A DNA stretch of 64,000 nucleotides. It comes from Octopus vulgaris (Eukaryota). Position numbers and translations under genes: made by a program. This document shows positions 7,445 to 46,850 of this stretch, piece after piece; the first letter of the stretch is position 1; every line of letters begins with the position of its first letter. The stretch is from NCBI GenBank assembly GCA_951406725.2, contig OX597815.1, positions 122,574,001-122,638,000 of the forward strand. The letters run 5' to 3'. Below the pieces are notes generated by a model. That model saw nothing but the letters and a program-made list of their open reading frames with translations. It made no database searches and was not told the DNA's origin.

Positions 7445-10400
7445 ATAGTGGGGTAGGCTGGTTTTTACACAAACACACACAATACAAACATGTTTTCTTC
7501 TTGAATACAAGTTGTAAAACTTGCAATGCAGTATGACGTGGTAGCATAATTTTTTGAACTATCTGTACATACATATTTATAAATACATACACATACACAC
7601 ATACACACACATATTCACATACATAATTCACATTTATGCATGTATACACATACATAAATACATACTTATAGATATATAAACAGATACACATATATATATA
7701 CACACGCATACAATCACACACATAATGGAATGACCTGTTATGTAAAAGAATTTGATATATTCAAACATTCCTTTAAGTAAGTTTAAAATATCTGGAGAAT
7801 CTATAGATGACAACAATTATTCATTACAAAACTGTTTTGGTTTTCCATTTCATTCTTTAAAGAAGTGCAGCTTCTCTAACTACAATTCTTGTCATTCTTT
7901 TTTTTTTCCTTTTTTTTTTCTTTTCAAATCAGACCATTTCACATTTTATGAAGGCAATATTGAGAAAGAAAAAAATAATTAAAATGGCATAGCAATATCT
8001 ACAACATTAATGTTAATAAATGGCAGTCAACTATATTTGAGATGAGTTAATGTAAATTCTATATTATAGACTTATGTTTAAAATAGGAAGTATTAATATT
8101 GATCGTTTTTTTTTGCAGTGTTTTGTTTCCTTTCATCTTTTGTTGGTTTTAAAACTAAAATCTTCAATTGTTTTCATATAACAAGCCCATATAACAATAC
8201 TGGAATGTCAAGATATTGTAGATAAATTACTGAAATTTCAATATATTGTAGATAAAATAAACAATTTAGTATCACTAAAATTAGCAGAGTAGGGGAGATG
8301 TTACAAAATGTTGTGCCATGAACTGAAGTTTTATAAGGTTTAACTCCTTCTCAGTCCTGATTGAGCAGACTTATAATGAAGGACATTCCACTCATTCCAC
8401 ACAGTATATATAGAATATATTATTTAATGCCTTCTTTTTCTAAGACAGTCAAGTATGACTGAAACAAGATTTGGTCCCTATTTCATTGGATTGTGAAAAG
8501 GTTTATGTGATGGATCTTAACAAAGAGGGCTAATGGATCAAAGAGGGTTTTCTTTTCTGCACAGAATAAAAATTTGTTCAAGATTATAAAATTTATCAAC
8601 CCATCCACTGCAAAAATTCGAGTTTCCTTTATACGATGGAAAAATCTTTAATGCAAGATATTATTCTGGATAAGCATTTTGATTGAGATACTTTAAATTA
8701 TGAGATCTCAAAGTTGGAACAATTACTTGAGCTTGCAACCACTAACTAATTTTGCTTTGTTGAAATGTTACAAAGTAGTCAGGTCTCATTTGGAGGATAA
8801 AAAGGATCTCATTAATAGACAAATGGGATATTTGCAGATATCAGTAGTGGGAAGGAATGCAACAGATAGAATAAGGAAAGTGCTGTGGATGTGATTTGCA
8901 AAGTTATGCAAGGAGTTCTGATCACCAGGAAAAACTAACAATAATGGAAATGATAGTCTGGTGCAATGAGGAGAGGAAACAAAGCACTCTCATAATATCA
9001 GAAGCAATGAGAATGCTTCACATCCAATCCAGCTACTGAAATTTAGATAATACTCATATGAGGAAGGTCTTGGCCAACACATTCAGTCAAAAGGTCTAGA
9101 AATACCGAATGCTACAATATTGAAAGCAATGGTTTAATAAATCCAATGCTGCTGGTAGATTTTCTAATGGCTGCTATGGGAAGAAAGTGACAAACTATAA
9201 TTACTCCCATAATTAAAAATATTTTCCAAATTTATAGTTTTATTAATATCTCATAACTTTGCAAATGTTGGAGACGAAGACTATAGTGTGGTCAGACCAT
9301 CTGTACTGTACACTGAGATGTCATGTAAATTACCCATAAAGCAGGTAATCAAATGTTATACCAACTCAGCAACTCCAAAAGGAATAATCTTTGGATAAAC
9401 TCTGGCATATAAATAGGGATTAAAGATCTGGCATTTACAAAGAGATTGAAGATTTGTTCCCAAGAGGGATAGGACTAATGTGGCAGAGGAAAAATGCATT
9501 GAAAATTATTTCTTTTAACTTTACTTGTTTCACAAGACTTCAGTCATGCTGGAGTACTTCCTTGAAGGGTTTAGTTGAACAAATTGACCTTAATACTTAT
9601 TTTATTTAAGTCTGATACTTATTTCATTAGCCTCTTTTGTCGATTGATTCTTTAACAATAAAGTTGAAGGCAAAATAAGCAGAAAGAGAAAAGGAAGATT
9701 GGATAAACTAGTTTGTTTTTGAAAAGAAAATGGGGGAAAATAAAAACAATTTTTAGTCTCAGGAGTATCCTGAGATATACTATAACTAATCTTCAAATAT
9801 TTAAATGTTATTTCCATTTTTAAGGATAAAAATGATATTTAAAATATACAGAGAAAGAAATTAGGATATGTGAAGATACAATGAGACTAATAATCATAAT
9901 AATTTCTTTAAGTAATTAAATAGAAGATTGCCATAAGTCTACATATCTACAAAGGCAAGCAGGCGATTTTCTCAGGTGAATTGTCAAGCAAGTGCAATGC
10001 AATGCAAACAGCCAGCAATTGTGCAAACATAAAGCACTACTATGATAGATATACATTGCTAATATAAAATCTACAGAAGTGAATGTCATATTAAATTAGT
10101 GTGTGCCATGTTAATTTGCAAAACTATTATTAATTAACATGATGTAAGATATTAAATACATAAATACTAATCGAATGATAATGATTATTAGTTTATGGTA
10201 ATGCTAAACTAAAAAGAAATCTATACATATACATGCATAGAGTGTTGATAGTAGGTGAAAGAACACAATATGACTTTAGAAGTACACTGACATTGACAAA
10301 TATACAAAAACAACAGCTGATACAGAACAACTCATCTCATAAGAAATAGGAAAGTGTAAGAAAAAGGTAATGAAATAGCCGTAAAATATGTTAAATATAT

Positions 10401-13248
10401 AGAGAAGTAAAAAACATTTTTACCTGAACGGTTTTAGAAGTAGGGTTATAAATACATCAAATAGACTTCTTTCTACTTGAAAGGAAGCACTGAAATAGTT
10501 TTCTTTTGTTATAAATCTATGAATAATTTTATGTTTTCCTTCATTTATGAAATAACTATAGTAAGCTCATGTCACATTTGTCACATTTCTTGATAAACTA
10601 TCAATAGAAATCAAGTCTATTTAAGCAAACTTGTTTTCTTTTAAAAAGATATTGATATTATCCTGAATAGTTAACAGAGACAAATTCACAATATGAAGAA
10701 TACAAAAGGCAAAGTGACAATCACTGAAAGCTGGGCTGAAGAAAGAAATATTACATTGTTTTCAGCCACAAATAAAAATAAATGTGATTATAACTTTATA
10801 TAGTAGATACTTATAATAAACACAAAGCATAGTCAACAGTAGGAATTATCAAAACAATAGAAGCAGGGACAGGACTAAATTCTAGTGTTTACAAAAATGC
10901 ATGCACTAATCACATGCAATTATATATGTAATCAATATGATTAAGAGGACTATGGGGAGATGAAAACACACAATAGACATTTTTAAGTGCTCATGCATGC
11001 AAAGTAAATTAAAAAGCAGGTGAACTAAAGAATGACAGTGTAATCCAATAATGACATGCCAGGTCATATTTGAAACTATGAAAAATATTGATAAAAAATT
11101 AACTTGTTTATTCAAATTAACCCTATATTTGAAAGGCAGCTAAAAATTAAAGAGGCAATCCTTCCTTTATTAAAGTTTCTTATATATATATATATTTTGC
11201 ACAAGAGAATAATCGTTATTATGATAATTTTCTATAAGCTATTAGAGTTATTGAATCGATTATTAGAGTGCTATGGTTATATTATGGTTATAATACTGTT
11301 GAATTGAACATAACACTAACAATCAGAAAAATTAATTTGTTTTTGAATATCTTTTGTTTTTTCCTGTTCATTGCTTAATAGAGAACAGAATAATAAAGTA
11401 ATGTCTGAAATATATATGATAAACTCAACAAATTAACATAATTACTTCAGAAAAACTAATAAGTGCAAAAAAGTTTAAGGAAACTAATATTGCAGTTTGA
11501 TTTTAATAAGCAACATTCAAGAAAAAAAATATTAACAAAAAAAGCTTTTAAACTAGCATATTCTACTGCTTCAAGAAAACCATGCCCTTTGCCTTCCAAT
11601 CATTGGTTACTGCACCACTCAATTACTTCAATACAGAAAAAAAGCAGAAGTTATAAATCCAATTCATTTATTCCAATTTTCGCTAACGAACTGTACAATT
11701 GCTACTGCATGTTTCTGATTATATTTACAAAATCTGACTTACATACAGAGCACCAATTAAGACAGAATGAAACTAAGAATCAAAAATTTCATTATGTTAT
11801 GCTTTACTGTCATTGTAATCAGATCACCTGCTTTTAATTACCTCAGTTATAACCCCAGTAGTTTAATTAAAAAAACATTTCATTTGACTGATGTAAGCAA
11901 AAATAAAAAAAACAATTATTACAATTAGCATTTGCTACATTTAAAAACAGTAACATTAAATATTTACTGTTTCTTGAAAGAAATAATTTAAAAATAAAAT
12001 ATAAACAGAAATTTTGATTAAAAAAATATTAAATTTAAGCATAATCTAAAATACTACAAAGTTGTAATATATAATATTAAACTTTACATCAGCATTTGAA
12101 TAATAAGTCCAACAATAAGGTAAAAGTACCACTATGGTTATATGCACAATTACCAGGCCAGCCTGTAACCTCTGATAAATATAGGCAAAGAATAAGTAAT
12201 GCAAATAAAAATGAGAAGCTTCCTTTTTTTTCCCCAAACAAAAAATATAGACAAGGAAAATAAGATTTAGCATAAGTGTAAGAATGTTTTCTTGAGAAAA
12301 GAAATATTAAATATAAAGGCAATCCCACTGATAATGTATGTGTTAAACTTCTGACTACTTCCGAAAATCCTTGTAACTTAGTAATAGGAATCATCAATTA
12401 ACCAAATCTTTTGGAGATAGATTTAATGTCAGGGTTAATAAACTATCATTGTTTTCAACTGAAGCAAAGTAGCCATCAGTGTCCGAAAGATAGAGGGTCT
12501 AATGCATTTGTTGTTGTAAACAATGTAAATGTAATTTATGTAAAAGCTGAATTTTAACTTTGGGCAGTGACTGAAATATATATCTAATAAGATAATTTAA
12601 ACATAAAATATATTTTAAGCAAAACATCACACTAATATATGCCCTGATATTATACACAACATATTATATATATATATATATATGTTGTATATATGTGACT
12701 ATGCATATATGTTTGTGTGTGTATATATATACACACACACATACGGTATGCTTGTTTGTGATATGTATGAGATAACTTGTAATTATGTATATATATATAT
12801 ATATATGATATATATAGATATATATAGACATATTTACACATGTGTATATATATATGCCTATATGTATTACACATACATATATATACTATATATTGTATAT
12901 AAATATTATATATAATATATATATAGTTTATATATATACATACACACATACACACAAACACACATGCACACACACACACACATGCACACACACACACATC
13001 ACCCTTCCACAATATCCTCATTTGTTTACAATTTGTTTTCTACCTAATAATTATATTTACTGACTGGGGTGATAACTGCTCACAATCTAATTTGAAAATA
13101 AAAAAAATAAAAAATTGCAAATAAAAATAAAAGATATTGTTAGCCCAATTATATTTTAACATTATTCCATGCATATCATTTTGGGAGTTTAGGCGGCAAT
13201 CAGCACAGCATGTAACCAGTAGACTTTGAGAGTTTCTTTGCTCTTTCA

Positions 13249-13535
13249 TTATGACTGCCATAGACAACAGAAAAAACAGCACCAAAAACAGCAACCAAAA
13301 CTTAAGAGCCACGCCATGAATCGTATGAACATCATAACCATAATCATGGCCAAGAGGAAGGTCTGCATGCTGGCATCCCCAACATTTGTGGGTTCCCCAC
13401 CTTCTGTTGGAGCTGCTTCAGTTGTTTCTTTCTTGGTTGTTGACTCAGTAACTGTTTCTACTGTCTGTTCCGTGATAATTGTAGTTGTTTCAGTTCTTTC
13501 AAGCAATGGCTTCACTTCTGCTACAGGGAGTGGTT
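13249..13535 (-). CDS. terminal exon: T/E-rich stalk + transmembrane helix + Cys-rich tail, stop codon
   Basis: Long polypyrimidine tract then tacag|[19 protein letters not shown]...[43 protein letters not shown]; phase 1 matches upstream exons. Confidence 0.75.
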
Positions 13536-13808
13536 CTGTAAAGGGAAGAAAAGCAAAAAAAAAAAAAAAATGCAAAGAAATTATTTTGTGTAAAATAATG
13601 TTAAAAAACCTAAAACTATATATTTGTTTTAGGCACAGGTATGACTGTGTGATTAAGAAGCTTGCTTCCCTAATCTTGTAAACTTAAGTTCAGTCTCACT
13701 GTGCAGCACTTAGGACAAGTGTCTTCTGCTATAACCTTAGGCCCATCAAAGCCTTGTAAATGGAAATGGAAAAGAAGCCTGTGATGTATGTGTGTCTGTG
13801 TGTGTATG

Positions 13809-16801: not shown

Positions 16802-19800
16802 TTTTTTCTTTCTCAATTTCACAAGTATGCACAATGATACAGTACATTTACCTAAGCCTACTTGATACACACGCTTATCTCTTGTCATCCCTACAGAGTC
16901 CCAAATACCAAGACTTGTACTAAACATTTTGGGCAATATTTCCTTTCAAGAAGTGAAACCAATTGTGTGTGAAACTAACTGTGTCTGACCCACAATTGGA
17001 TTCACTTGTGAAAAGTGGATGTTAAAATAATGATGACAAGACAATCATTCAAAAGAATAGTTATGTTGGTCATAATTGGTGTGTTATCATAACATGGTCA
17101 TAGTAGGTGAGTTGTCACCATAGTATGGTCATAACTGGTGTATTACTTCAGCAATAATTTTCAGCTTTTCTATTATATGTTATATAATATTATACTGTTA
17201 ATTCAAACAGTTAACAGGTATATTTAATATATAAAGCCTTGCATACTGGGCAGTTATATACAGAGTAATATATACATATATATCATTAAAAGCAATTCTT
17301 CCTAGATTTTCATTATGCTACGATTGAAAATAAAACTTTTTTTTTCCAGTTTAGAAATCAAAATGCATGATTAATAATTCTCCAAACTGAACTATTAGAG
17401 AGCTTTTGGAGTTCTTGTAGTATTGTAATTTTTATATAAATTCTTCAATTTTGAAAGAGAAAAATATATTTTAGTTTTAATTTTGTTACATTACCTGGTT
17501 TTGGAGGTGCTCCACGGCTACTAACATCAATGTTAATCTCAAACTTGTGGAACTCTTGCTTAATTTCCATCTTCTCCTGTTCACTTACAACTGCTCGCTG
17601 GGTTTCAAATTCAGTATCACTAATTGATAAGGCTGAAATTAGAATTGGATAAATACTTGAAAATAATTGTTACTGAACAAAGATACATTTTTGTAGCTAA
17701 AATAAAACTACAGAAGTAATTTTTTAAAATCACAAAACACTAAATGGATAAATTGAATAAAATATAAATAAAATACTTATGATATTTTCTATGACTAATA
17801 AACATTTATAAAATAAATATATTTATAATTAAAAATATGAAAGCAATATTAATAGTTCATTATCTAATTCTATTAATACAATGATCATTTTCATTGTAAT
17901 TATATCTCTCAAAAGAAAATTTGGGAACAGTGAAGTTCAAAACTCATCAGAATCTAGAATGAAAACATCAGTACATTAGATATGTATTACTAATGATATC
18001 AATAGAAATTAAACTTATTAATAAAACTAAATGTGGACTAAAGCATTTAACATTTACAGAACAATGACACATAAATGTTAGATTTCATTTACAACTTTCT
18101 TTGCCAAAATATTTTACATAGCAAAATTTTAAGAGCATGTTAAATAATTTTCTTAATGTAAAATATTTTCTATATTAAATAGTATATTGTTGCGAATTTA
18201 TTTTTGGCTAATTATAATTTTGAAAGGTGACTTTGGCAAAGAAAGTTTATTTATACATAAATTTGTCTGTTAGACAATATTATAATTAGCATAAATTCTT
18301 TTGCTTTCCAATCAAGGCAGATCCTGGTAAAATCCATAATTGTTAATTAGGTTTATAAAAGAAAATTGAAATAATATTTTTAAACAGGTCTATAATCCTA
18401 TTTTGTTAACAGCTCACACATACATACGCACATGCATGCATGCACACACACATGCACACGCACATACACAAAAACATACATACAGATGCGTGCATGTGCA
18501 CACATGCACACAGAGAATTACACATTCTGAAGAAATACTTCTTTGATTACAGAAGTAAAGCGGAATGTAAAACACTGTAATAATTTAGTTTTTAATAAAT
18601 CATAATATAATTGCTTATATATATGCTTGTGTATATAACTCAAGGGCCTAGTGGTTCATGAATGCACAAAACTCACTCCTTGAATTACTTTTGTAACTTT
18701 CTACTGATTACAAACAATAAAAGTATCTATATATTTATGTATTGACTTCTATTTTTCTGGTTTGTTCATTCAAACCTATACACATACATACACATATACA
18801 TACATATACATATATACATATATATATGTACGTACGTACATACGTACATACGTACATACATACATACATACATACATACATACATACATACATACATACA
18901 TACATACATACATACATACATACATACATGTATGCACCATTTTGAGCAGGATACTATTTAACTTCAAGCGAGTCACCAAAAAGTCAATAAGGTGTTGGTC
19001 AATCTGATAAAGATCAAGCTGGATTTGTAACTCAGATATTTAAAATACAAAGACTTAATCCAATTAGTTGTAAACATGTACTAAAACATGATAAAGATAC
19101 ACTGCTAGAGTAACAACAATACTATAAAATTGATGAGTGCTTCATAATTTGAAGTCATCATTATTTTTATGCTTGTTTTTCTATGCTGACATAAGTGACA
19201 TGGGACTTATAGAGGCAGTGTTCAATAGACAGATACCCTTTCTGACTCCAACTCTTTATTGCTTTCAGCTAACATACTTTGTTCCACTGGTCCACACACA
19301 TTGAAGCACTAAGTTGTTGGACATAAATCGATGTCACCCTTGCTCACATAGGGGCAATGTGAAGACAGACAGTAACACGAAATTTACAAGTTTTTTTCAT
19401 ACACAGCAAGCTTTATACTGTTTCATTCTCAAAATTTCACTCACAACATATTGGTTCACCCAATGGCATAGTACAAGACATTTCTCCAAAGCAACACACA
19501 GTAGGATCAAGTCCAAACCCATGTGACCGCAAAGCAAATCTTTCCAGTTCCAGCCATATTTGCATCTTAAGATCTTCCTTTAAGTAGGATTTTACCTAGA
19601 GACACCACATAGAATTTGAGTGTTCAAATGGTCCCTTTATAACCCATTGTGATCTAAAACTATCTTCACTAGTTATTATAGTATGCGCTGCTTAGAATCT
19701 AAAAAAAAGATGTACAAATTTTGATAGTTAAGGAAAATATTGGATAATGCTTTTCTTTTTTATTAGTCTCACAAAGATAAATGGAATGAAAATATTATTA

Positions 19801-22800: not shown

Positions 22801-25800
22801 TAAAAAGCCGATGATTTCACATAGCAATTTTGTTTTATTTTTACTTACGTAATACTGTAACGTAGGCAGTAGATACATATGAACCAGCATCATTTTCAAT
22901 CCTCACTTTATATTCTCCTTCATCTTCTAATATAGCTTGTTTAACAACAATCATAGTTCTGTTTTCTTCAATCACAATTAAAAATTCTTCAGTAGATTCG
23001 ATAACTACATCTTCAAAATACCATGTAATTGATGGAGCAGGATGTGCTTCAAATATTATCTCAAGAGTAAATGTATCTTTTTCACGGACACTAATATCAT
23101 GGAACTCTTTTATAACTTCCAGCTTAGTAGATTTTTTATGAATCTCTGATACATCAATGGTCTTTTGAATATACTCAGATTTTTGTTTTACAATTTCACT
23201 TGTGGAATCCTTTTTAATGATCCTGATTTCTTTTTCAAATTCTGGTTCAGGTTCTTTAGGATGTGAAGCAATTGTTTCTATGGAATATGTTTCTTTTTGT
23301 GTTACATTTAGTTGTTCAGGAACTGTTCTAACTTCAATATGCATCTCTGGTTTTCTTTCAACAGGAATGTCTTTTTCTTTAGAGACAATAGTCATGTGAA
23401 CTTCCTCAAACTTTGGTTTGGGAGTAATTTCTAGACCTTCTTTATATATTGCAGTTTCATCAACGGGTTCTTCCCTTCTCTCAGGTGTAATTTGTTCAGT
23501 AACTTTCTGGACAATATGTATTGTCTCATTGACATCAACCTTCTTCTCTGGAACAATAGTCATGCGAACCTCCTCAAATGTTGGTTTGGGGGCAATTATA
23601 AGACCCTCTTTAAACACTGCAGTTTCATCCACTGGTTCTTCTTTTCTTTCAGGTGTAATTTGTTCAGTAACTTTCTGGACAATATGCATTGTCTCATTGA
23701 CATCAACCTTCTTCTCCGGAACAATAGTCATGCGAACCTCCTCAAATGTTGGTTTGGGGGCAATTACAAGACCCTCTTTAAACACTGCAGTTTCATCCAC
23801 TGGTTCTTCTTTTCTTTCAGGTGTAATTTGTTCAGTAACTTTCTGGACAATATGCATTGTCTCATTGACATCAACCTTCTTCTCCGGAACAATAGTCATG
23901 TGAACTTCCTCAAAAGTTGGTTTGGGGGCAATTACAAGACCCTGTTTATACACTGCAGTTTCATCCACTGGTTCTTCTTTTCTTTCAGGTGTAATTTGTT
24001 CAGTAACTTTCTGGACAATATGCATTGTCTCATTGACATCAACCTTCTTCTCCGGAACAATAGTCATGTGAACTTCCTCAAAAGTTGGTTTGGGGGCAAT
24101 TACAAGACCCTGTTTATACACTGCAGTTTCATCCACTGGTTCTTCCTTTTTCTTGGGGGTAATTTCCTCTTTAACTTTCTGGACAACTTTTACAGTCTCC
24201 TTGACTTCAACCTTCTTCTCAGGAACAATTGTCATATGAACTTCCTGAAAACCTGGTTTGGGTGAGATTTCCACAGCTTCTTTAAATACAGCAGTTTTAT
24301 CAACTGGTTCTTCCTTTCTCTCGGGAATTCTTTCTTCTGTAACTTTCCGAACAATTTCTACAGTCTCTTTAACATCAACCTTCTTTTCAGGAACAATTTC
24401 CATGTGAATCTCTTCTAACTGTGGTTTGGTTACCACATTTACAGATTCTTTGAACAAAGATGATTCTGAGATTGATATATCCTTCTGAATATTTTCAGAA
24501 ACATTTATTTTTATATCACTCTTTTTAGGTCTTGTAACAGGAATAGTTTTGTCTACTTTATATTTCTCTTCAACTTGCATAATAACAGGTACATGTTCAG
24601 CTAAAGAAACTTCATGCTGAACAAGATTTGTTACAGAAATTGCTTTCTCTACCCTCTCTTCTCTTGGTTTGATTTGAACCATAACTTTTGAAGTTTTGTC
24701 TCTAGTAGTCTCAATAATCTCTTCCTTCACAGGTGATATTTCTGGTTCCACCGCAATGTCTATGCATTCTGTGAACTCTTCAAGGCTTTCCTTTTCTTCA
24801 TCAGATGGTTCAGCTGCATCTTCAAATGATTCTTCCTCAACTTCTACAGGTTTGTCCTCATACACATTCATTTCTTCTGATACAGTTGGTATCACCATAT
24901 CAGTAATTTCAGCGATCTGAATTTCTGCTGAAGTAGGGATTTCTCTAGGAATAATTATCAATTTATCAATCTCAGTCTCTTGTGGAATTTCCTCAGCACA
25001 GACGGATCCTTGAGTAATAAAAGGCTTCTGAGAAGCAGATGATGGAACAATTTCAGCTATAGGTTCTATAGCACATACTTCTTTGATGACATCATGAGAA
25101 GATTCAATAACTGTAGTATCTGGCAATTCATCAACCTTAATTTCTTTTTGCACAATTAAAACTTGTTCTTTTGTTGTTTCAGTGGTGTCATAATCAAATG
25201 TTGTACCAACTGGAGATTCTTCTCTGGGCACAACAACTAATAAGTCAAGAATAGTATCTTCTGAAGAACCTTCAACATTAATTTCAAGCTTCTCTGATAA
25301 TTCATGTGTATCTTTAGATCCTGATTCAATAAGTTCGGTCTGTACTTCAACTGGAGATGGTTCCCGAGGGAAAGCTTCAACATTTTCTGCTGCCAAATCT
25401 TCAGGTAAGACTGTGACATTTTGAACATGTTTTTCTGTGACCATATGTTGTTCTACACCCTTAGATTCAATGACTTCAGATGTAGTTTCAACAGGTGATG
25501 GTTCTCGAGGGAAAATATCAACATTTTCAGTCGGTAAATCTTCAGGTAAAACTACAACATTTTGAACATGTTTTTCTGTCACCATATGTTTCTCTACACC
25601 TTTAGATTCAATGACTTCAGATGTAGTTTCAACAGGTGATGGTTCCCGAGGGAAAATATGGACATTTTCAGCTGGAAGAACTTCAGGTAACACAGCAACA
25701 TTTTGAACATGTTTTTCTGTCACCATATGTTGTTCTACACCCTTAGATTCAATGACTTCAGGTGTAGTTTCAACAGGTGATGGTTCCCGAGGGAAAATAT

Positions 25801-28800
25801 CAACATTTTCAGCAGGTAGAACTTCAGGTAACACTGCAACATTTTGAACATGTTTTTCAGTAACCACATGCTGCTCTACACCCTTAGATTCAATCACTTC
25901 AGGTGTAGTCTCAACAGGTGATGGTTCCCGAGGGAAAATATCAACATTTTCCACTGGCAAATCTTCAGGTAAGACTGCAACATTTTGAATATGTTTTTCG
26001 GTAATCACATGTTGTTCTACACCTTTAGATTCAATCACTTCAGGTGTAGGTTCAACTGGTGTAGGTTCCTGATAAACTGCATCAGCATTTTCAGCAGCAA
26101 TTACCTCTGGGATTAGTTCAACATTCTGCACTGGTTTTTCAACTGATTGAATAACTCTTATATCAGATTCTATATTTTCAATGATCATTTCTACTGGAGA
26201 TGCTTCTGCAATGACATTTTCACTTTTTTCCATTGTCAAATGATCTGAAATTTCATTTATACAAACTTCAGTTTTGGATGTGATTTCTGCTTTGTTTATG
26301 GCTAAATTCTCAGATGTTTCTGGCTGGATATTTTCAAAATCTGTAGAAAACCTTAATGATTTTTCTTCATTAACAGTTTCTTTTGATTCCTGAACAAAGT
26401 GAATTTGCATTGTTTCTGATGGTATTGTATCAGGCTCATCCACATCCACTAAAATGTTAGTAGGCTCTAACATAAGAACATTCTTAAAACTGGATTCCAC
26501 AGCTACATCTTTGGTCATCTCAGTTTTTACAATTTCTTTGACAACTTCTTTCTGAGCATCAACATTTATAGTTATTGTGTCCACAAAATTGCTTGGTTCA
26601 GTAGCTATTTTAACTTCTTCTTTGAATATCTGTTCAGGAGATACAGTAAATTTGATTTCTTCCTTTTTAATTTCTGGTGACAATACAACTTCTGTTTTGA
26701 AATTTGAAACTTCTGCTGGTTGAATCTGGATGCCTACTGTTTGAACTATTGTTTCTCTTTCAATGTGCTCTTCTTTTCTTACATCAGGTACAATTTCTGA
26801 TTCCACATAATCATCTTGATAGCATTCTTCAAAATGATCTTCACTATCATCAGAAACTGGCTGACCTTCAATGCATTCTTCAAATGTTTCTTCACTTTCA
26901 AAGCTTTCACCTTTCTGAATTCCATATGTTTTATCAATTATTTCAATATTAACTTGTTCCATTACTGGTTTTGCATCTATTGAAATCTCTTCCACAAATG
27001 TTTTAGTGACTTCCTTATGCTCTTCTTCAATTGGAGAAGCAGCTGAAAGAAATATCATTCAAGATGAACTTTCACTTAAAGATTCTAAAAACAAATTCCA
27101 GGTTCCACATAAATTAATAATAATAATAGTAGTAGTAACCTTTCTTTAACAAATATTTTTGAATAACATTTTTAAAAATCTGTTATAAACAAAACCATTT
27201 AAAACCATACAAAGTTGATTTTTCACTCAATTAATTTTAAAGCAAAATTTAATTGAGATTACTGTTAATTTTTGTTTATCAAATACCTAAAATAAACATT
27301 TCAACTATTATCAAAAATTTGGCCTTACAATGGTTTTATATTCTATTCACACCTCTGACATGTCAAAACTTTGTAATATATATTAATTAAATGATCACTT
27401 TTAAACAACACATTTTTAAAACTTCTTCTAAAATAGCATTATATCTTGAGATTTATTTTATACCTGAAATAAGAATTTTATCAATAAAATTGTTGAAATA
27501 GCTGAAAAAATAACTAATCAATTACTTTTTTATATTAAATATTATTTAAAATTTAATAATATTTTCTTGTAATTTGAAAAATATACTGCTTTATAAAATA
27601 AATAAATAAGCATAAATTTGTTTAAAGTTTCAAATACACAAAAAACTCATAATTTATAGCTTAAAAGTCAACACTTCAAAAGTAATGATTAATTAACAAC
27701 AAATATTTAAATTCAATTAACATTTTCAAAATATAATTAATAGACTGATTTTATTTTGAGCAATTCTTCAAAATAAAACATTTCCAGCTACTGCTCTCAT
27801 TATTATTATCATTATTATTATTATTATTATTACTCAAAAAATTATGAGTAAGCTGGCCAAATCCTTAGAAGGTCATAAAAAGTACTTTGCAGTATTTGTT
27901 CCAGTTCTTTATATTCTGAGGTCAAATCACATGGAGGGTAACTAACATTTCATTTCCTCGGGGGCAATTAAAATAGAGTACCAGTTAAAAACTTGAGTTG
28001 ATGGCATCAATTAATCCCTTCGTGTCAGAATTACTATCATTGAACCAAAATTATAAGCATTATTATTATTATTATTATTATTATTTTGTATCTCACCCCT
28101 ATGGAATTTAGATGGGTTTATTCTTAGATAACAAGTCACTACCTGTGACCTCAGTCACTCAAGGACTTTTGAATGATCTTCACTGCTCCTAACAAGCAGG
28201 CCAGTGACATGTATTCTATGTGCTTCTGCAATTCAATCTTTTCTGTCTACTCTTTGAGCCTCTTCCTTTCATTCCTAAAGCTCCAGTGACAATTGGTACA
28301 ACCCCACTTTTTCTGCAACCCCACAATCTGCTTATCTCTCTCTTCAGATCTGGGCACATATCTACCTTGTTGATTTCTTTTTCTTTTTATTCATGTATAT
28401 AATGGACAGGCCACATCAATTGTGTAACAAGTTGGTTTCCTTTTCTCAAACACCAAGATATCTGATCTGTTATGCTCTAGAACATGATCTTTTTGGATAG
28501 GAAAAATTCAAAGAAGTTTAACCTTACTGGACAAAATGCCTTGCAATATTTAGTTAAGTGATTTGTAACATATATTCATATATTCCAATTGTATTTATTA
28601 TAACTGAAATGACAACCACATTTCATGTATACTATAGTGATTTTAATCTGATAGATAAGTGAAAGTCTGAATTCCTCAACTCTTTTTTAATGACCTTGTA
28701 GTCACTTGATACCGCTATAGCAATTATTAACATACAATATTTTCTACAAGGCAGTTTTGTTGTATATAGATCAGGCATTATTTTCTGAATTGTACCTTAT

Positions 28801-28965: not shown

Positions 28966-31900
28966 CATGTAAATATGTATATATGTGTACATGTGCATAT
29001 ATGTGAGTACATGTATGTGTGTATACACACACGCACTTTGGTACTTCATATTTCTACATATAATTTGTGCGGCAGGTATAAGATATCTAGTACATATACA
29101 GTATACTGTTTGAGGAAACTTATCACTTATACAGTATGATCATTGCTATGTTCTGTATTATTACCAGTCATTATTCACAATATTATGAAGCAAGAGATAA
29201 GCTTCTGATAAGTCAGATGTGTAATGTGGATTCAGTTCCAGATTAAAGCCATTTCCTTTTATAAAGGACAATAGTGTCTTTGGAAATATATCAATAACAC
29301 TTATTTACTTTCCCATATCTAAAATATATTTTAGTGTCAAGAAGAAGAAACCAATACATGAGGTTCAATTTCTCCCCAGGATTGATTTAAACATTTCACC
29401 TCTCAAGCAATTGATAAACTAAATAATGGGCTTGTGTTGAGATTAATTCAGTCCAGTGAACCTCTTCCTTAAAAATTTGTGCCATTGTGTCAATGTAATG
29501 AATTATTGTTGCTGGTGTGTATTGACAAGCAAGGGATAAAACAAATATGGATCTACTATATGAGGGTGAGTTTCAGGTGAAGTCATTTCATTTCATTAAT
29601 ACTGCTAAAACCTTATCATAACCTCTTCCATTTCTATGATATAGTGTTTGAATTTCAAGTTATAAAAATATCATAATTACATTTGGGGAGGGGTGATGTT
29701 ATTAAGATATAATTATTGTTATTATTATTACTATCTTTGTTATTATTTTCAGCTAATTGCATGACAATTATAAAATATATTTTTAAAATTTATTAAGTAG
29801 TTTTTGATTATTCAATGTTTTTTTTTTTATGTATTCCCTGATCAGAGAATGTTCTGCAAGTGAAAATATTTTCAGACAGTAGATGAGACTTTATAACTAT
29901 TTTATGTGATTACCTATAAAGAATTACAAGAAATTATTTTGGCAAATATGGTTCATTCACAAAGAATAGAAATAAAATAAAGCATTGGTACTTACACAAT
30001 ACAGTAATATAAGCTGATGAAGTCACTGTGCCAAATTCATTAGTTGCAACAACAGAATATAAACCTTGATCTTCGGGAAACACTTCTTCAACGATGTATT
30101 CAGAACGATAACCTTCTTGCCTGATATGAACGCCTGGTGATGGAGCAAGTTCAACTTGATTCAAATACCATTTCACTTCTGGAGTAGGTGTTCCACTGAC
30201 AAATACTTCCATATGGAGAACATGATTTTCAACAACAGAAATATCTTTTAAGCTGACTTCAAAGGAAGGCATCTTACTTTCTTCCACAGTTTCTGAAATT
30301 ACTTCAGTTACAAGGTTTTCAACAAATGTTTCCAAAATCTCAGGTACCTCTTCATATTGAGCTTCCAAAGTTTCAATTGGCATATCTTTAGCTATAGCTG
30401 TTTCAGTCGATGGATGTGTGACTTCAGTCAAATTTGGTTGTTCAAAAGCTTCTACAACAGAGCGAGTAGTGGTTTCAGTGATTGGTTGTGTTTTCACAGA
30501 TTGAGTATCCAACTCAACACCAATAACACTCAAGTTCAATGTATCTTGTTGTTTCACATTATCAATTACAGATGGTTCAAGTAATTCTTCAGTGATATCT
30601 GCCTTACTTTCAGAAGGAGCTGAGGGTGCACAGACATTACTTAGAGGTGATACCTCTCTTTCATCTGTTTGCTTTTCAACTTCACGTGTTAACTCATATG
30701 TTTTATGTTCCTCAACAACTTCTTCAAGTGGCACTGTTTGAGTAAGGAAGGCATCAGATGGTTTATATTTCACATCTAAATCTTGTACACTAGAAGGTTT
30801 TTCCATACTTTCAGTTTTATTTTCCTCCAGTTGCTTGACTTCAGGAATTTCAAATATCTCTTCAAGAACAACGCTCTTTGCTGTTTTAGGAGAAATATGG
30901 CCAGTAGTCTCTTCAGGAGCTGTCACTTCCTCAACAACTGGTTGAGATGAAGTTTCTTCATCCAATGATATTATTGAAGATGATTCAGTAAATTCTTCTA
31001 GTGTAATAGATTTGCTCATGATTGGCATTGATTTTTCAGCCATTTCTTTTACTACTTTCATTTCAGCACTACTAAGTTTTTGTTCCACTTTTTCAGCAAC
31101 GTTTACAACTTCTGGCACTTCAATTATAGATTCATCAGGTGCAGCTTGAGTTTCCCTTTCCACTCTCCGTTCATACTGTACTTGGAAGCTGGTTACCCCT
31201 TCACTCTTCAAAGTCTCTACAGGAGCTTCTTCAAGATCCATTGTAGTTGCATGTTCTGTCATTTCCTCTAAAGCAAATGCTTTTGCTGAGGTAGGATATG
31301 TTTTCTCAGGTTTAGTTGTAACTTGCTTAATTTCTTGAGTACTAGGCTTATATTCTGTTTTTTCTGGAAGATTCAATATCTCTGGGTGTTCTATCAATTC
31401 TATTTCTACAGCTGTTTTACTTTCAACAGGGAGATTTTGCATGTATTGTTCACGTATGGATGAAACTTCATCAGGAACAGTCTTTTCTTCTACTTCTTCT
31501 TGAACATCACTTGCAGTTGCCTCTTCAATGAGTTCTTGCATAGCAACAGTTTTAGCAGCAGTTGGTAAGTGTTTCTCAATAGTTTCAGTAATAACCTTAT
31601 CAATTTCTTGAACAGTTGTTTTTTGTTCAACACTTTCACTGATACTAAATACATCTGGATGCTCAATAGCAACAGTTTCAATATCTACTTTAGTTTCTTT
31701 TGGTAAAAGTTGATCAGTTTTATGAACAACAGAAACAATTTCCTGTCCTGAGGTTGTTTCCTGATCTAGTTCCTTAACATGAGTTACAACATTTTCAGGA
31801 ACATCTTCTGAAAGGAGTGTTGATTCAGAAATAATAGGCGAATCAATTGCAGATGTTTCAGCAATTACTTGTACTTCAGAAGAAGTTGTTTGTTCTTGAA

Positions 31901-34900
31901 CTTTACTATCAATATCAAATACCTCTGGCTGCTCAACTCTTTCCAATCCAACAGCTACTATACTTTCTTTGGCATGTTTCTCTTCAACTGTACGAACATC
32001 CAAAGTTATTTCTTCCATTTCAGTTGTTTCTTCAGGAAGTTCTTGTAATTGTGTCACTACAGATTCTTCTGTTAGTTCTTTCATAACAACAGACTTAGCC
32101 ACTGTTGGTTGTTGTTTCTCAACCTCAAAAGTAACACCAGGAATACTTTCAACATTTGTTTGTTCTTCAACTTTGCCATCAATAGCAACAACTTCAGGTT
32201 GTTCAAGACTTTCCATTTCCACAGATACTTTAGTTTCTTTGGCATATTTCTCTTCAACCTTATGGATATCCAAAGTGATTTCTTGTACATCAGTTGTTTC
32301 TTCAGGAAATTCTTGCAACTGTGTCACAACTGATCCTTCAATGACCTCTTTGATAACAGCAGACTTAGCGACTGTTGGTTGTTGTTTTTCAACCTCTTTG
32401 GTAACTGATTCTATTTTCTGAATATGTGTTTGTTCTTGAACTTTACCATCAATACTTACTACTTCTGGTTGCTCTAGACTTTCCATTTCAACAAGTACTT
32501 TACTTTCCCTGGCATGTTTCTCTTCCACTTTGTGGATATCCAGAGTGATTTCTTCCATGTCAGTTGTTGCTTCTGGAAGTTCTTGTAACTCAGTAAGTAT
32601 AGATTCTTCAGTGACTTCTTTCATAGTGACAGATTTTGCAACTGTTGGTTGTCGTTTTTCAGCTTCTTTGGTAACTCCAGGTACACTTTCAACGGTTGTT
32701 TGTTCTTCAGTACTGCTAACAATATGAAATACTTGTGGTTGATCAACACTCACCGTTTCAATAGATACCTTGCTTTCTGCTGCAAGCAGTTGTTCAACTT
32801 TCTCTTCAACTTTAACAATATCCCTTGTTACAGGTGTTTCTATTTTCTGTTCAAAGTCAAATATTTGAGGTTGCTCCAAGTCTTCAACCTTTTCAACAAC
32901 TTTCGTTTCAGTGGCAAATCCTGCTTCATGTTGCTGTGAAACAGAAATGACTGATTCAGATTTGACATGTTCTTCTGGAACTGACTGCAATTCACTCAAC
33001 TGACTTTGAACTGGGATTTGTATCTGGGAAGCTGCTCTAGCACTGATTGGTGATTCTACATCAGCTTTTTGAATACTATCTTTAATTATTTGTGATGTGA
33101 TCTGGAACTCAGCAACTTGTTTCTGAGTAATATCAGTAGTTGATTCTGCTTCACCAGTCAGAACCATCTCCACAGTTTTAGCAGTGTGATATTGCTTTTC
33201 AACTACAGTAGTTTCTGGCAATTCAGTAGAAACTTCAGCAACTGAAGTTTCTTCTTGAATCAATTTCTTAACTTCTTCATAAGACAATTGCTTCAATTCA
33301 GTTTCTTCCAATATTGGTCTTGGAGATGGAGCTTCCTGTGATGAAGCTTCTTCACTGTCAGGAATATATTCATATGCTGCAATATTGAAAATAAAGAGAT
33401 TAGACTTATGAACTCATTTTACCTACATATACTGAAACTATGAAATTTGTAATTTTTTTCACCAGCTAATGATTAATCAATCAATTATTTGTACAGCTAA
33501 TTAAGAAAAATTCTGTAAAATTACAACTTTAAAATACAAAATATATAAATAGATAAATAAATAAATAATTAAATTATTCATTTTCATTTACACATTTTTG
33601 TTGTTGTTTCATGTTGAAATAAAATTCATAAGACATTCCAAAAGCTTTCTAATCAACATAGAGATAAAATTTACAATGCAAGTTAATAGATGAGAAGCTG
33701 TTCATTTTGTCATGCAAAAGAAAAATTATGAATAAACATTAAGGATGAATAATGAATGAGCAAAAAATAAAAAAAGTAGCTGATTAAATCACAAATGAAA
33801 ACTATACAATGAAAGCTCAAAGAAATATATAAAGAAATTTGATAAAATTTATATGTATAGTAAAGTAGTCTATACCACTTTATTTCTTTTTTTTAATAAA
33901 ATTATAAACTCAGTTATTTAAGAAATTTCTAAGCAGTTCATAAAAATAATTTACCATTAAAATGAGATTATTCTAACTCTTGTAAGCATTAACAGTAGTT
34001 TTCATTGAATTTTTACAGTTACATAATTTGTAAAATCATTAGATTTTGTTTTGCTTATGTTTTCTTTTTCATGAAAGCTTCTTTTTAATTAATAATTTCT
34101 AAGTTTCTATTTCTATTCACAACATTCTCTTCAGATATAGATTTTCATGGGATTTCATGTTGAGATTCTCTTTGAAGTAATTACAAAACTAGTCACAGAA
34201 GCATAGTGCAGGCTCCTGCTGGCCAACTCCTATCCAACTGTCCAACCTATGCCAGCATGGAAGGAGGATATTAAACGATAATGAGGATGAGTATGATTAT
34301 GAAATATCAACTGCATTGGCTTAAAGTTTAATATGACAGATTAAACTTTATATTCAATTAACACATCCATGTATGCTTACTCAATACCCAATATACATTT
34401 CATATTTATTCTAAGATATTTATGTTATCTACTTTGCTTTAACCATTTTAATTATTCAATTTTATTTGTAAACAACTTAGGGAAGAAAAACAATAACAAA
34501 GTCACCACTATGCATTTCATTGTTGATTCGTGGTATATGTGTGTGTACCATATTGTGAATGTGTGTGTATGCATGCATGTGTACATTCATGCAAGTATCT
34601 ACATATGTACTAAGTCACTAAGATATATAGGTCAGAAAGAGAACAATTTTGTTTCACTGACATTCACAAAAGAAAAGGACTGAAAATATGTGAGACAAGG
34701 AATTTGTCTACTATAATAATGGGCATTGAAACTCGGTGTCATGACAAATTATGATTTAACATTGTTTTCATCGTGTTACAAATGATGTAAGCAAGAATGA
34801 TTGACCATTAACTAAATTGATGAAAAAGATAAATATTTCTTAGAATTAATGGTAACACAAATAATTTGTTACACACCTCAAGATAATAAATATTTAAAAA

Positions 34901-37900
34901 GTAGAGGGCTTCAAATATATAAAGGAAAGATTAGATGAGAAGCTCTGTGTTTCAGAGTGATAAAAAAGATACTTTTAAAATTTTGTCATCCTATCATTTG
35001 CATTATTTCTTAACACAAGCATTTAATTTATCTTTCAGGTATTCATTTCACTGATTAGACATATTTGCACTTGAAAATAAATCTAACATTTTGCAGATAT
35101 GGTATAGCCTGTTGTGGCTGAAGATTAAAATTAAAAGTTAAATGCAAGATCTTAAATGTAATTTTTTGGGGGGGGCGGGGGGGACAGATAGCAACAAGAC
35201 TTTGAGATCACTATTGCAAGTAGAACCACATATTACAAGAATTATCACAAGTTCCTTGATACCATAACCCTGAAGTATTAAGACAAATAAATTAGAAGAG
35301 ATGCAAAGCACCATCTAAAAATGAAGTGTGGAATGAGAATGCTGTAGTATATGTGACAGCATTGTCTCCATAGGTCTTACCAGATTATCCATCTAGTTTT
35401 AACAATAGCAAAGAGGAGGACCCAATAACGTCGAAGATATGCTTTATATAGAATTAGAATGATGTATAAATGAAATTAGGGGAAGTTAAACAATAGAGAT
35501 TAGAAGGCCATGTTTCATGGAAATTGGGAGATGTGTATGAAAGACATGTCTTTTCATTTGCTGAATCTGGAGGAAGGACTAGTACCCATGGTCCTTGTAG
35601 ACCCTTAATGTTCCTCTAGGACAGTGGGAAAGATATGAACAAGGAAGAAATTCCAGAAAGCTGATACCTTGGAAAGGAATGACAGAGCATAGTAATTAAG
35701 GGAGATCCTGGAAGCACAAGGATGGGGAGGGGTGATAACAAGGATGATGGAAAGAGGAAAGGTGAGTGAGTTGGGAATATCTGAGTAGAAAAGGTATTAA
35801 CACAGTCAGCTCCAAAGAACAGAAGCCATTATAGTAGCAAGTGAAAAATCAGAAAGAGCGTACAGTACACCAGTGGGTCAGGGCTAGAGCACATCTGTGA
35901 AAGCCTGCTTTTTATTTTTAGTGAGATATTTCCTCCAGACACTTATAGGCTAAAAAATATCTTTGTTTTTAAAGAATAACCAATATTCTAGTGAGCCATT
36001 AGTAGAAGGAGACTAATGTAAAGAATAATTTCAGTAAGAAGGAGAATAAATGTCCTCAAGACATGAAAACAAGTGTAAAAAAAAACACATGATGATATTT
36101 TAGCCGATAGGATATCCTACTATCCTATCATTTAGTAGAAAAATGATAGGATAGTAGGATACTTAAGTAGATTTGAGAGGTAAGATTTGAAGTAAGTAAT
36201 GAGTACTATTAATGGAATACTTTGCAGCTTGCACCTACTTCCAAAAAAAATTTAAAGAAATATTTGAAGTCAGTACTCTAGAAGGAGAAATAGTGATTAA
36301 ATGTGAATGAGTGCATACGCCAACCTTAAAGTAAATACAACTGAGCTATGTTAACTAGTTTCTTTTTGTTCACTATCATAACTCATCTGATTGCTTAAGA
36401 TTACAAAATTAAATATACATATAAGCTTTATTTGTATTCTTTGTTGTGTAAGATCAGTTACACAATTCTTCATTAGTTTTCATTGCATCAAGCAAAACTA
36501 ATGCAAAAGTATCAGTTTTCTATCATTGATTTTATGAACCAAAAACTCTTAGCAGTACAACATTCAAAGGAACTATAAACTGTTAATATGACTATGACCT
36601 GAATTTAAATTAAATCCCTAAATAAATGTAAGCTTGTAATAATATTAAGAAAAACTTTTAGTTTGAGGGGTTTTCAAGAGCATTCCATTTAATTTATTTT
36701 TTAAGCACGAGATTTAATTTATTTTACATTATTTCATGCACAGACATAGAAAGCTTCAATATTTTAATTACATAATGATAATGAAATAAAAATGCCTGTA
36801 AAGAAATAAATGTTAGTAAAAATGAATGCAACAGAATTATTTACTTACACTTACGAATAATTGTGGTTAATAAATGACAGATGATAAATGATGCTAATAA
36901 GAGATGCGAAACTTTTGAAAATCCTTTTAAATGTAATAAGTAAAAAGATTTCAAATCTAAATATTTATACTAAGAACATGTAACTTTCCGAGGCAAATAC
37001 TCAAGCAAATACTCAACATGGTCATGGCTGTCAATAGCAGAAGCATAATAATAATATGTTGTAGTTTCATTAGCAATTTTATGCATTATGCTTCTAGTGA
37101 TTAGAACAAGACAAGTAACGAAGGCAGAAACTAAATCTATGATGCTTCTAAACCTGCAACAATTATCACTTACATTCTATTTCCAAATACGCTCTGCTAA
37201 CAGCAGTACCTAGAGCATTGGTTGCTTCACATTTATATTCACCAGCATCTTGTGGGAATACTTCAGAAATCAGTAAAGAACAACTTCCAGTTTCCTTATT
37301 GTATGTACATTTGAAATCTTGGTTTTCAGAAATAGGTACTTCCTCGTGGTACCACACTATTTCTGGCATTGGCTGACCATCGATTTCACAGAGAAATTTT
37401 ACTTCTTCACCATCCATAACTTTCAATGATGTCAAATTCCAAGTAAATACTGGTGCTTTACCAGCTTTTTCAACTGGTTTCTCTTTCTCTTTTATTTCTT
37501 CCTTTATGACCTCTTCAATTACTGGCTGTTCCTCTTTTTTCAAAACAATTGTTTCGCGAGAAACTGAAACCATATCTACTGTTTGTGCAGGTATTTCAGC
37601 TACTTCTACAACTACTGGTTTATCAATTTGTGCATGTATTTCGACTGATTCTACAATTGGTGCATCGGTTTGAGCAGGTATTTCAACAATTTCTACAACT
37701 GGTACATCAGTTTGTGTAGGTATTTCAACAACTTCAACTGGTACATCAGTTTGTGCAGGTATTTCAACTGCTTCTACAGCTGGTACATCAGTTTGTGTAG
37801 GTATTTCGACTGCTTCTCCAACTAGCACATCAGCTTTTGCAAGTATTTCAACTGCTTCTACAGCTGGTACATCAGTTTGTGCAGGTACTTCAATAACTTC

Positions 37901-43900: not shown

Positions 43901-46796
43901 TGAAAAATATTTAAAGGTAAAATGTAAACAGGCTGGTTTCTGCATATTTAAGTAAATTAAATGCAAATGTTTACTTGATCAGTTTATTCGAAGACTGACT
44001 GAACAAAGATACTAAGTGAAGAGTACGGTAATTTATCTGGGATTATTTCATCTAATTTTTTAAAATGCATTATTAATTTAATATCAATTTATTTCACTGT
44101 GATAAGGCTGCTAACTTATGGGATAGGGGAGGATTCGGTTAAATCAAACCAAGTAAGTCTAGTACTTAACAATCTCAGATGTACTGAAGGTAGTCAACCC
44201 TTACAAGATTTGAAATCAAATCATAGATTATGAACTTAAATACAGACAAATTTTTTAATCTATTGCTCAACCATTTCTGCTAATTGACCCATCTTGTTAT
44301 TTACTTAATACTAAAGTCACTAGGATTCATTTATAGTGAAAATGTTGTTGGTCGCAGTAACTGTTATGATATAAACATCTTCCAGAAATTAGTTTGGTCT
44401 CAATTTCTGGATTTAAATTTGGTTGGGGTAAACTTAACTTGTTGTTTTTCTCGAGTTGATATAACAGGATACTAATCAAACACAGGTGACTAAAAACTAT
44501 ATAATTCTTCTTTAAATTTCTGGCCTTGTACCACTGAGAAAAATTATAATAGTATATTGTCAACAAATTTCTAAACATCGCAAATTAATAGACCTTACAC
44601 TACATGTGATTAAAACTATACAACTTCCCTTCAAATTTGTGGCCTTGTACCAAAATGAAAATTCATAAAATGATATTAACTATCAATTTCTAAAATTCTT
44701 TTAAATTAATTCATTTTATGAAATATTTCTATTTTTGTTTGTTGAATTTTAGGTTTAAAAATTTATCAAATTAATAGATGCACTAGAAACAGTATAAATT
44801 AAAATAATGACATGTATAATGTTCATAACATATATATACAACTGTGGAAAGGTGCTAGTTGTAATATTTTGCCTCAGAGAAACTTCTCCTTCAGAGATGA
44901 TTCTCTGAGACAAAACATTAATGCTGTTGCTTTACCAGGTGTGTACATACATTAAGAATATTTATACACAACATAATGAAAAAAATCTACTGAAATTATC
45001 AACTAAATTTAACTCAGTTCTTATTTCATGAAAATAGTCTTATTCTTTTAGCATTATTGATATCATCCTAATATGATCAAATTAACATTAAATGAAGGTA
45101 AGAATTTAAAATGTATCCTATGAAACTATAATAACTATATTACTCACTTTCAACAATAACAGTTGTGGAAGTAACAGATTCTCCATAAATGTTTCTGGCA
45201 TGGCAAGTATATTCTCCTGCATCTTCTGGATAGACTTCAGTAATAATCAACTTACATCTACCAGTTTCGATTTCAAATGTTATCTGGAAATCATTATTTG
45301 GTACAATCTCAATTGAGTCTTTATACCAAGTGATTTTGGGTTCAGGATAAGCATTCATTCTGCAAGTCAATACAACCTGAGAACCATCTTGAACAGTTTG
45401 TGGTTGCAAAGGTTCCACAAATTCAGGAGGAATAGCAGCTGGTTTGGCTTTCTGATCTTTCTTCTGAATAGGAACAATGACTTCTTCTTTCTTTGGTTCA
45501 TGAACTGTCAGTCGAGCAGATGTAGCTGCTTGTCCATATTGATTGATAGCCATGCAAACATAATCTCCTCGATCTTCTGGAAGAGCTTCCACAATATGGA
45601 GACAAATATCTCCTGTCTCTGGGTTGTATGAAATGACGTATTCATCATTGTTATCAATATTAGTTCCATTGTGGAACCAAGAAACATGAGGAATAGGCTT
45701 TCCAACAACTTTGCATATCATTTTTATTTCTTGGCCATCGACCACATCCATTGTTTCTAAGTCTTTGACAAAGTTTGGTGGCATAAAGTCCTCTACAGGA
45801 GGTTCCTCTTCAGTTTCAGGAGGTGGTGACATTTCTGCAGCAGGTTCTGTAAAATAAGCAACATAACATTAGTTATAGCTAAACATTTTTCTTTTATTTT
45901 TATATAATTGGTAATGATTGCATTAAATAAGGCATTTTGAATATTTATTCAAGTATAAAAGTATATCACTTTCCAATGTTTTATTTAGAATGGTAAAGTC
46001 AGATTTTTAATAGTAACTGTCAATGGTTTAGCATGAGATGTGTGGGGTATGTGGACTACACAGAGTAGCCACTTTGGATGGAGGAGGCCAAACATACATT
46101 GAAGGTATGTTACATTTAAAGAAGAGCATAACCACTGTGGCTACCACAGATCATGCTATGCTACAGTTGAATATTAAAAAAGTGTTGACAAGTACAAGCA
46201 TGACTGCCAGAAATTTGATTTGCAACCAAATGGTTTCAAGTTTAGTCCCACTTTAGGGAATTAGGTATTGGTGTTTTTAACAACAATCCCAGTCAACAAA
46301 TCATCCAGAAGCTCTGTGCTTTCAAAGATGATTGGCATGAAAATTCCCTTACTTGAAACCAGTTAAGGGTTAATGACACAATGGTCATCGATCTATGGAA
46401 ACAGTTATATGTATTCCACTAAAACCCATGCTACCATTCAAAAAGGAATGTAAAATGTACAAATAAAACCATTGATGATATGAAAAGAGAAATATTACCT
46501 TGAACATATAAGGTAGTACTGCACACAGCTTCACCTAATTCTGAAACTGCTCTGCATGTATATTCACCAGTATCTTCTGGTCCAACATCAATAATGATCA
46601 GCAAACTTTTACCAGATTCGTAAAAGATTTCATAATGTGGAGAAGGCTTGATTTCCATTCCATTGATATACCAAGTAATCAAAGGAGGAGGATGAGCATC
46701 TACTGAACATTCAAGTCTGTAAGATAAAATAATGAAAACATATACATTTATATAAATATAAACATATATCTATGTCTATCCATCTATCTATACATA

Positions 46797-46850
<54 letters not shown>

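Follow-up and report, generated by a model that had tools for sequence, protein, structure and literature searches.

The locus raises the question whether a giant protein of the titin family can end in a membrane anchor of its own. The window, i.e. the whole 64,000-nucleotide stretch of octopus DNA analysed here, is AT-rich animal DNA bearing one large minus-strand gene. The sequence-only reading of the window had proposed that this gene is titin/kettin-like, and that its last traceable exon encodes a hydrophobic helix followed by three CC pairs. We consider in turn the identity of the gene, the status of this exon, its connection to the upstream exons, and the likely nature of the encoded tail (Table 1).

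About 15 I-set domains can be traced in the gene within the window, and the gene start lies outside it. Twelve of the 16 segments scanned with Pfam contained an I-set match, one of them at E 0.014, below the curated cut-off; none of the scanned segments matched an Fn3 domain. The last I-set Ig, in exon 22849..27042, was found at E 2.7e-14, and no Ig exons were found below 22849 within the window. The best matches in PDB were titin chains, namely 6dl4 for exon 61687-61501 (E 4.5e-8), and 3b43 and 6fwx for exon 45846. The spacers of kettin carry, according to the accessible part of its description, the motifs IXXXQH(P/E) and IQXLE, 5–9 residues apart (PMC3207145). In the window, a single spacer, that of exon 62566-62479, reads IIGTQLP and, at a distance of 8 residues, LRQLE; these come near the two motifs without matching them exactly. 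In addition, inspection revealed the layout of kettin region 4, with the spacer exons 60297 and 58735 followed by four close Igs at 58.5–53.4 kb. The long spacers consist of 43–47% P+E+V+K, chiefly E and V, with 8–10% T, and the giant exons contain coding tandem repeats at 23385-24408 (168 nt × 6.1), 25346-26069 (141 nt × 5.1), and 31886-32778 (270 nt × 3.3). Judged by its sequence, the host gene is of the kettin/Sls type (invertebrate titin), with the 3′ part in the window; the I-set domains, the titin matches in PDB, and the region 4 layout all bear out the earlier proposal.

Table 1. Features of the kettin/Sls-type locus and of its candidate terminal exon.
Feature	Position	Strand	Remarks
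Kettin-type exons	60181..63011	-	Ig end; spacer; Ig; start of long spacer
Spacer nearly matching kettin motifs I and II	62566-62479	-	Within the kettin-type exons
Ig best matching a titin domain in PDB	61687-61501	-	Within the kettin-type exons
Run of small exons	40059..58735	-	About ten I-set Ig domains with short linkers
Exon, 1527 nt	37174..38700	-	Repeat-rich spacer and I-set Ig
Exon, 3381 nt	29996..33376	-	E/V/T-rich spacer and I-set Ig; donor also joined directly to 17632
Exon, 4194 nt	22849..27042	-	E/V/T-rich spacer of about 1300 residues with 56- and 47-residue repeats, then last I-set Ig
Penultimate exon, 138 nt, phase 1-1	17495..17632	-	Acceptor at the loose ends of two X5 contigs
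Polypyrimidine tract and CAG acceptor	13536..13568	-	28/30 pyrimidines, rank 1 of 1613 minus-strand YAG sites
Terminal coding exon	13249..13535	-	Phase-1 acceptor, 94 full codons and stop; acidic T/E-rich linker, then conserved tail module
Pre-membrane motif [LI]GW...N-V-x-D-x-S-M	13366..13404	-	Conserved; W absent here, present in the other 8 clusters
Predicted membrane-spanning segment, residues 57-77	13303..13365	-	Hydropathy in 9/9 clusters; AlphaFold2 helix 51-93
C-terminal amphipathic helix, residues 78-94	13252..13302	-	C82-x3-C86-x3-C90 conserved; CC pairs in this genome only
Candidate long 3′ UTR or, in a longer isoform, intron	9700..13248	-	AATAAA at 11672, 11171, 11112

As far as the accessible descriptions of Drosophila Sallimus/kettin and C. 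elegans kettin go, the gene resembles them in the I-set repeats, the near versions of kettin motifs I and II, and the long spacer followed by close Igs; long E/V-rich extensible exons and alternative splicing are further features shared with Sallimus/kettin (PMC3207145, PMC9886281). The same sources describe the end of Drosophila Sls as five fibronectin domains reaching the start of the myosin filament (PMC9886281), and that of kettin as lying after Ig35 (PMC3207145). Unlike these proteins, for which the accessible text reports no membrane segment, the gene in the window has a last traceable exon that encodes a membrane-type helix (PMC3207145, PMC9886281). The gene may continue beyond the window, the tail exon being an alternative rather than the only end.

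This exon, 13535-13249, is open in phase 1 on the minus strand, with a CAG acceptor at 13535. The acceptor had been called very strong. This holds for the 30-nt tract, which tops all minus-strand YAG sites of the window in pyrimidine content, and does not hold for the weight-matrix score of 5.9 (training range 5.1–16.5), which ranks 42 of 1093 AG sites under a crude matrix trained on 19 acceptors from the same window. The phase, by comparison, agrees with what had been proposed: a phase-1 acceptor fits the phase 1-1 exons upstream (45846, 40370, 38700, 33376, 27042, and 17632), and the chain 38700->13249 is open for 3174 codons, with the sole stop at its end. The chain stays open, at 1776 codons, when exon 27042-22849 is skipped. 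The continued T/E/V-rich composition was likewise recovered, as the first 54 codons of the tail exon contain 19% E, 26% T, and 9% V, and their P+E+V+K content is 43%, compared with 43–47% in three long exons.

To describe the tail, we number residues from the first full codon of exon 13535-13249. A phmmer search with the tail against 1.84 billion representatives yielded 10 hits. Two were compositional matches and were dropped before alignment, a dinoflagellate repeat protein (P0009) and a low-complexity T/C/Y-rich ORF (P0010); the remaining eight (P0001–P0008) were kept, so that the tail is present in 8 further 50%-identity clusters. The alignment comprised 19 sequences, and all per-residue counts refer to nine cluster representatives, the window included. 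D53, M56, F59, W75, and C82 are invariant in the 19-sequence alignment. Among the representatives, C82 is kept in 9/9, W46 and R/K71 in 8/9 each, and C86 and C90 in 7/9 each. Residues 53-92 show 35–65% identity, versus 8–29% in the preceding acidic linker. Moreover, a profile built from 18 proteins without the window sequence recovered the exon at E 2e-24 among 2687 window frames, the runner-up being at E 0.05. Hydrophobicity alone would be insufficient to set the tail apart, since its maximum mean over 19 residues on the Kyte-Doolittle scale, 2.34, is equalled by 43 of the 573 stop-to-stop frames of at least 40 codons in the window; the tail exceeds chance because it is conserved. When compared over 40 codons with its counterpart in a metagenomic contig (L001, see below), it has 20, 30, and 14 identical first, second, and third codon positions, respectively, and this order, 2 > 1 > 3, is a coding signature. 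Exon 13535-13249 is real coding sequence, and it is likely the last coding exon of the kettin/Sls-type gene. Automatic gene models may already contain it.

The helix of the sequence-only reading is therefore conserved, as the eight other clusters and the contig L001 extend it to sequences of other animals, and the three CC pairs are not: C81 occurs in 4/9 clusters, C85 and C89 in 1/9 each, which confines the pairs to this genome. The common pattern of the tail is C-x3-C-x3-C. Molluscs are our guess for the source of the homologs. The 40-residue module has no match to any Pfam family. A tail profile search of PDB produced nothing better than E 1.7, a search of the ESM Atlas with the tail gave no usable match, none of 25 candidate viral contigs was confirmed, and an exact-sequence look-up of ten window-encoded ORFs found none present in the protein collection.

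The tail resembles CYSTM modules in being C-terminal, hydrophobic, and cysteine-bearing. In CYSTM proteins, conserved CC clusters form the membrane segment, whereas the main hydrophobic segment of the tail precedes the cysteines, and its CC doublets are not conserved. None of the 19 members matched Pfam CYSTM at E up to 2 (filters drop most weak matches above 0.1), and the CC triplet is limited to 1/9 clusters; the suggested CYSTM likeness is not supported. The absence of a PPPX KASH motif, in turn, was read correctly: no cluster out of nine ends in PPPx, and the KASH profile of Pfam matched none of the 19 members, so that we reject KASH membership. There was also no caveolin match in Pfam among the 19 members.

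The tail exon could still belong to another transcript, as the sequence-only reading had cautioned. One line of evidence on this point comes from contig JYMV01000753.1 (L001), the sole one confirmed among 20 candidate stretches in a metagenome scan. It starts within an I-set exon (Pfam E 5e-10) that closes with a phase-1 donor at 154, and a homologous tail exon lies 4.3 kb downstream, with a phase-1 acceptor at 4464 and the identical first residues E-P. The order of the Ig exon and the tail exon and their phase are common to the window and this contig, the synteny coming from this one contig. We did not find in L001 a counterpart of the 138-nt exon between the Ig and tail exons, nor any nucleotide conservation between the two 3′ flanks. 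In the tail of L001 (4464-4726, P0004), Pro replaces the conserved R71, and three additional cysteines stand ahead of W75.

The upstream part of the connection was observed in sequencing data. Among the loose ends listed for run X5, those of two contigs lie precisely at 17632. Their 30-letter consensus matches donors 29996 and 22849 at 23/30 positions each and at 30/30 jointly; the next window site reaches 20. The joins 29996->17632 and 22849->17632, obtained from one run by decomposing a two-contig consensus, show that both last Ig exons are spliced to exon 17632-17495, and skipping of the 4194-nt exon 27042-22849 is indicated in this one run. Exon 17632-17495 has a phase-1 donor with a score within the training range and requires a downstream acceptor. 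Among the pieces listed for four runs over 13005-18400, there was no 17495->13535 contig. The depth of the tail exon was zero in all four, a hole that is no evidence either way because of the record filter, and intron stretches lacking coverage are likewise given no weight. The check on junctions proposed by the sequence-only reading is thus half answered: the joins into 17632 were seen in one run, and 17495->13535 was not. At least half of 46 sampled words of 13060-13560 are contained in 20 runs from 9 studies, of which 19 are small assemblies of 10–115 million letters, their RNA nature being guessed or not on record. This fits an abundant transcript and is no proof of it; as low-depth intron pieces occur in X5, tail-exon words in a run do not prove a mature mRNA.

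Protein collections were less informative. No long protein with the tail was found among 79 candidates of 166-2000 aa and 8000 candidates of 322-2000 aa, and searches with length limits of 2000 and 5000 residues gave no long protein uniting Ig domains with the tail. A search with the last Ig region returned, from 114 candidates, five generic Ig-repeat proteins (three named flatworm or crab, one hemicentin), none clearly the same gene, and no full-length named homolog; with the Ig exon, the ESM Atlas gave generic I-set clusters only. One homolog, P0008, was considered as a fusion of the penultimate exon with the tail and rejected, as BLASTP produced no alignment and 315 of 2000 shuffles equalled its score. 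Still, the linkage in L001, the phase, and the upstream joins make it unlikely that the exon is another transcript's, and we regard it as very probably part of the Ig gene. We infer the last junction, the continuity from kettin to tail in one mRNA, and expression in muscle.

Since in the RNA-type evidence just two Ig exons, the last ones, are tied to exon 17632, the tail might be present only on a shorter product of an internal promoter, consisting of a few Ig domains, a spacer, and the helix. It would then be a membrane adaptor of the sAnk1 type, binding sarcomeric proteins off the full kettin filament. According to the accessible text of a recent study, the connectitin/kalirin loci have internal promoters (PMC12198301). 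However, the exon chain from 40370 to the stop is open and phase-compatible, and we consider this explanation unlikely. A full-length isoform ending in the tail remains our preferred reading, and we turn to the properties of its end.

By simple hydropathy scales, one hydrophobic helix lies within about 40 C-terminal residues in 9/9 clusters, with KD19 of 2.25–2.97 and summed Hessa scale values from -1.07 to -4.69. In the AlphaFold2 model the linker is disordered and a single helix, 51-93, is predicted with confidence (pLDDT 78–96 over 51-94); at 43 residues it is longer than one membrane span, and it is unbroken. Residues 59-70 are hydrophobic on every face in all nine clusters, and a single helical face, at most 120 degrees wide, bears R71, W75, position 78, C82, C86, and C90. 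Given the hydrophobic 59-70, the conserved R71 and W75, and the polar or small position 78 (S, D, K, G, or Q), the most consistent membrane span is 57-77, with 78-92 as an amphipathic extension. These features support a conserved C-terminal membrane-type helix, as far as prediction from sequence goes. With a titin-type cytosolic N-terminus and no later domain, it would be a tail anchor.

The insertion, topology, and target membrane of the tail are likewise what we infer. The N-side flank of the segment is acidic, and a conserved Arg lies inside it; both fit poorly with the positive-inside rule. The simplest tail-anchored topology places the tail cysteines on the non-cytosolic side, which the cytosol-facing palmitoylating enzymes are unlikely to reach. 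Palmitoylation of these cysteines is therefore doubtful, and disulfides or partner binding are favoured. As tail anchors commonly enter the ER, we rank the sarcoplasmic reticulum first, the sarcolemma second, and nuclear or mitochondrial membranes third.

The hydrophobic run of 37 residues exceeds one span, and position 78, being polar or small, might mark a turn. One could accordingly imagine a palmitoylated hairpin or monotopic anchor with both ends cytosolic and the cysteines acylated, placed at the sarcolemma at Z-level attachment sites. Such an anchor is quite unlikely, because the second segment would span just some 12 residues and is degenerate in 2/9 clusters, the AlphaFold2 helix has no break, the CYSTM and caveolin profiles are unmatched, and the CC triplet is not conserved, despite the location of the conserved cysteines on a single face and the membrane-matrix processes that the accessible text of PMC5430041 describes at Z lines in cephalopod muscle.

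A non-membrane helix would be another kind of end. It could bundle or bind partners, tying filament ends together or to thick filaments in place of the Fn3 end of insect Sls, and the invariant D53, M56, F59, W75, and C82 with the conserved Arg do suggest a binding surface. We hold this to be very unlikely, as 59-70 is hydrophobic all round in 9/9 clusters, with L, I, V, M, F, and A interchanging as in lipid-facing helices.

The least probable explanation, and hardly a credible one, is that the exon forms a small transcript of its own, or that translation from M56 gives a membrane micropeptide of 39 residues acting as a pump regulator, resembling sarcolipin or phospholamban: M56 is invariant and opens the hydrophobic run, and every homolog was found as a short ORF, but short ORFs are what intron-blind gene calling would be expected to produce from a last exon, the residues ahead of M56 are conserved as well (W46 8/9, D53 9/9), in L001 a phase-1 acceptor lies 45 codons further upstream, position -3 of the ATG context is A in the window and T in L001, and the profiles of the SERCA regulins phospholamban and sarcolipin are unmatched, so that these families are rejected.

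We thus return to a tail-anchored kettin/Sls isoform that tethers Z elements to a membrane, probably the sarcoplasmic reticulum, which we consider reasonably probable. By analogy with the family, the N-terminal kettin repeats would bind actin in the Z element. The Ig domains and the long E/V/T-rich spacers would form an extensible arm, its length set by skipping of phase 1-1 exons. The C-terminal helix 57-77 would enter the membrane post-translationally, the short helix 78-92 would sit at the far leaflet, and the conserved cysteines, R71, and W75 would provide one face for partner binding or disulfides. In this way a single chain would link the Z element elastically to the membrane. More tentatively, and with less confidence than we place in the tether itself, we suggest that one invertebrate lineage, probably the molluscs and perhaps lophotrochozoans more widely, possesses an old titin isoform which is an integral membrane protein in its own right. 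This single-chain, splice-tunable spring would run from the Z element, where actin is anchored, into the sarcoplasmic reticulum, and its conserved Arg/Trp/Cys face could bind a membrane partner, for example a calcium channel or pump.

Such an integral-membrane titin would position the sarcoplasmic reticulum in muscle without T-tubules and relay sarcomere strain to it. Obliquely striated muscle is of this kind (PMC4757648), and the protein would be a candidate molecule for holding the sarcoplasmic reticulum among the dense bodies there. Giants of the titin family are seen as soluble filament proteins that reach membranes only via partners such as sAnk1 and MSP-300; with a conserved anchor built in, the family would gain a new architecture. 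The anchor of sAnk1 is its N-terminal helix. In the obscurin–small ankyrin 1 system, as described in the accessible text, a giant Ig protein is similarly joined to the sarcoplasmic reticulum, but two proteins are involved, mostly at the M-line, and it is sAnk1 rather than the Ig protein that bears the anchor (PMC12812942). Drosophila MSP-300, according to the part of its description available, anchors ER, mitochondria, and nuclei to Z-discs via Sallimus, the titin homologue; there the anchor is a separate spectrin-repeat/KASH protein, whereas the tail in the window has neither PPPX nor a KASH match (PMC3432764). Similar to the proposed isoform, vertebrate Novex-3 titin is cut short after the Z-disc/I-band Ig region by a terminal exon of its own; unlike it, Novex-3 is presented as a Z-disc structural and signalling hub, with no membrane anchor given in the accessible text (PMC13649281).

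A membrane-anchored, transmembrane, or membrane-bound titin did not appear in the accessible portions of the literature searched, a collection thin on subscription work, including the classic invertebrate connectin papers. In particular, the 2025 study of connectin evolution, which uses octopus and oyster sequences, has 0 occurrences of "transmembrane" in the text and five supplements as far as these are accessible (PMC12198301), and the accessible parts of PMC12040844, PMC13322953, and PMC5430041 contain nothing on a membrane-anchored titin. A conserved C-terminal membrane module on a kettin/Sls-type gene is apparently undescribed.

The locus has several further features. The interval from the last Ig exon to the 138-nt exon contains acceptor-like sites at 22344, 19698, and 17953 (-); in phase 1 they lead to a stop within 1–6 codons, and soluble short ends are possible. 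Downstream of the stop of the tail exon, a 2.7-kb U-rich stretch without a tandem repeat (9700-12400, minus strand) contains 16 ATTTA, 4 TGCATG, and three AATAAA, which would suit a long 3′ UTR or a regulated intron. A possible micro-exon at 10473-10424 (-), 2.8 kb beyond the stop, has the frame ERSLFDVFITLLLKPF and a CAG/GTAAAA donor, and could be a chance occurrence or a piece of a longer isoform. At 16425-16784 lies an interspersed repeat of high copy number, over which the summed contig depth is very high in 3/4 runs. Finally, an intronic ORF of 210 codons at 41567-42199 (-) matches Pfam DUF6451 (E 2.6e-4) and resembles what we take to be the end of a LINE-type reverse transcriptase, and an intronic fragment at 42431-42736 (-) looks like a possible piece of a piggyBac-type transposase.
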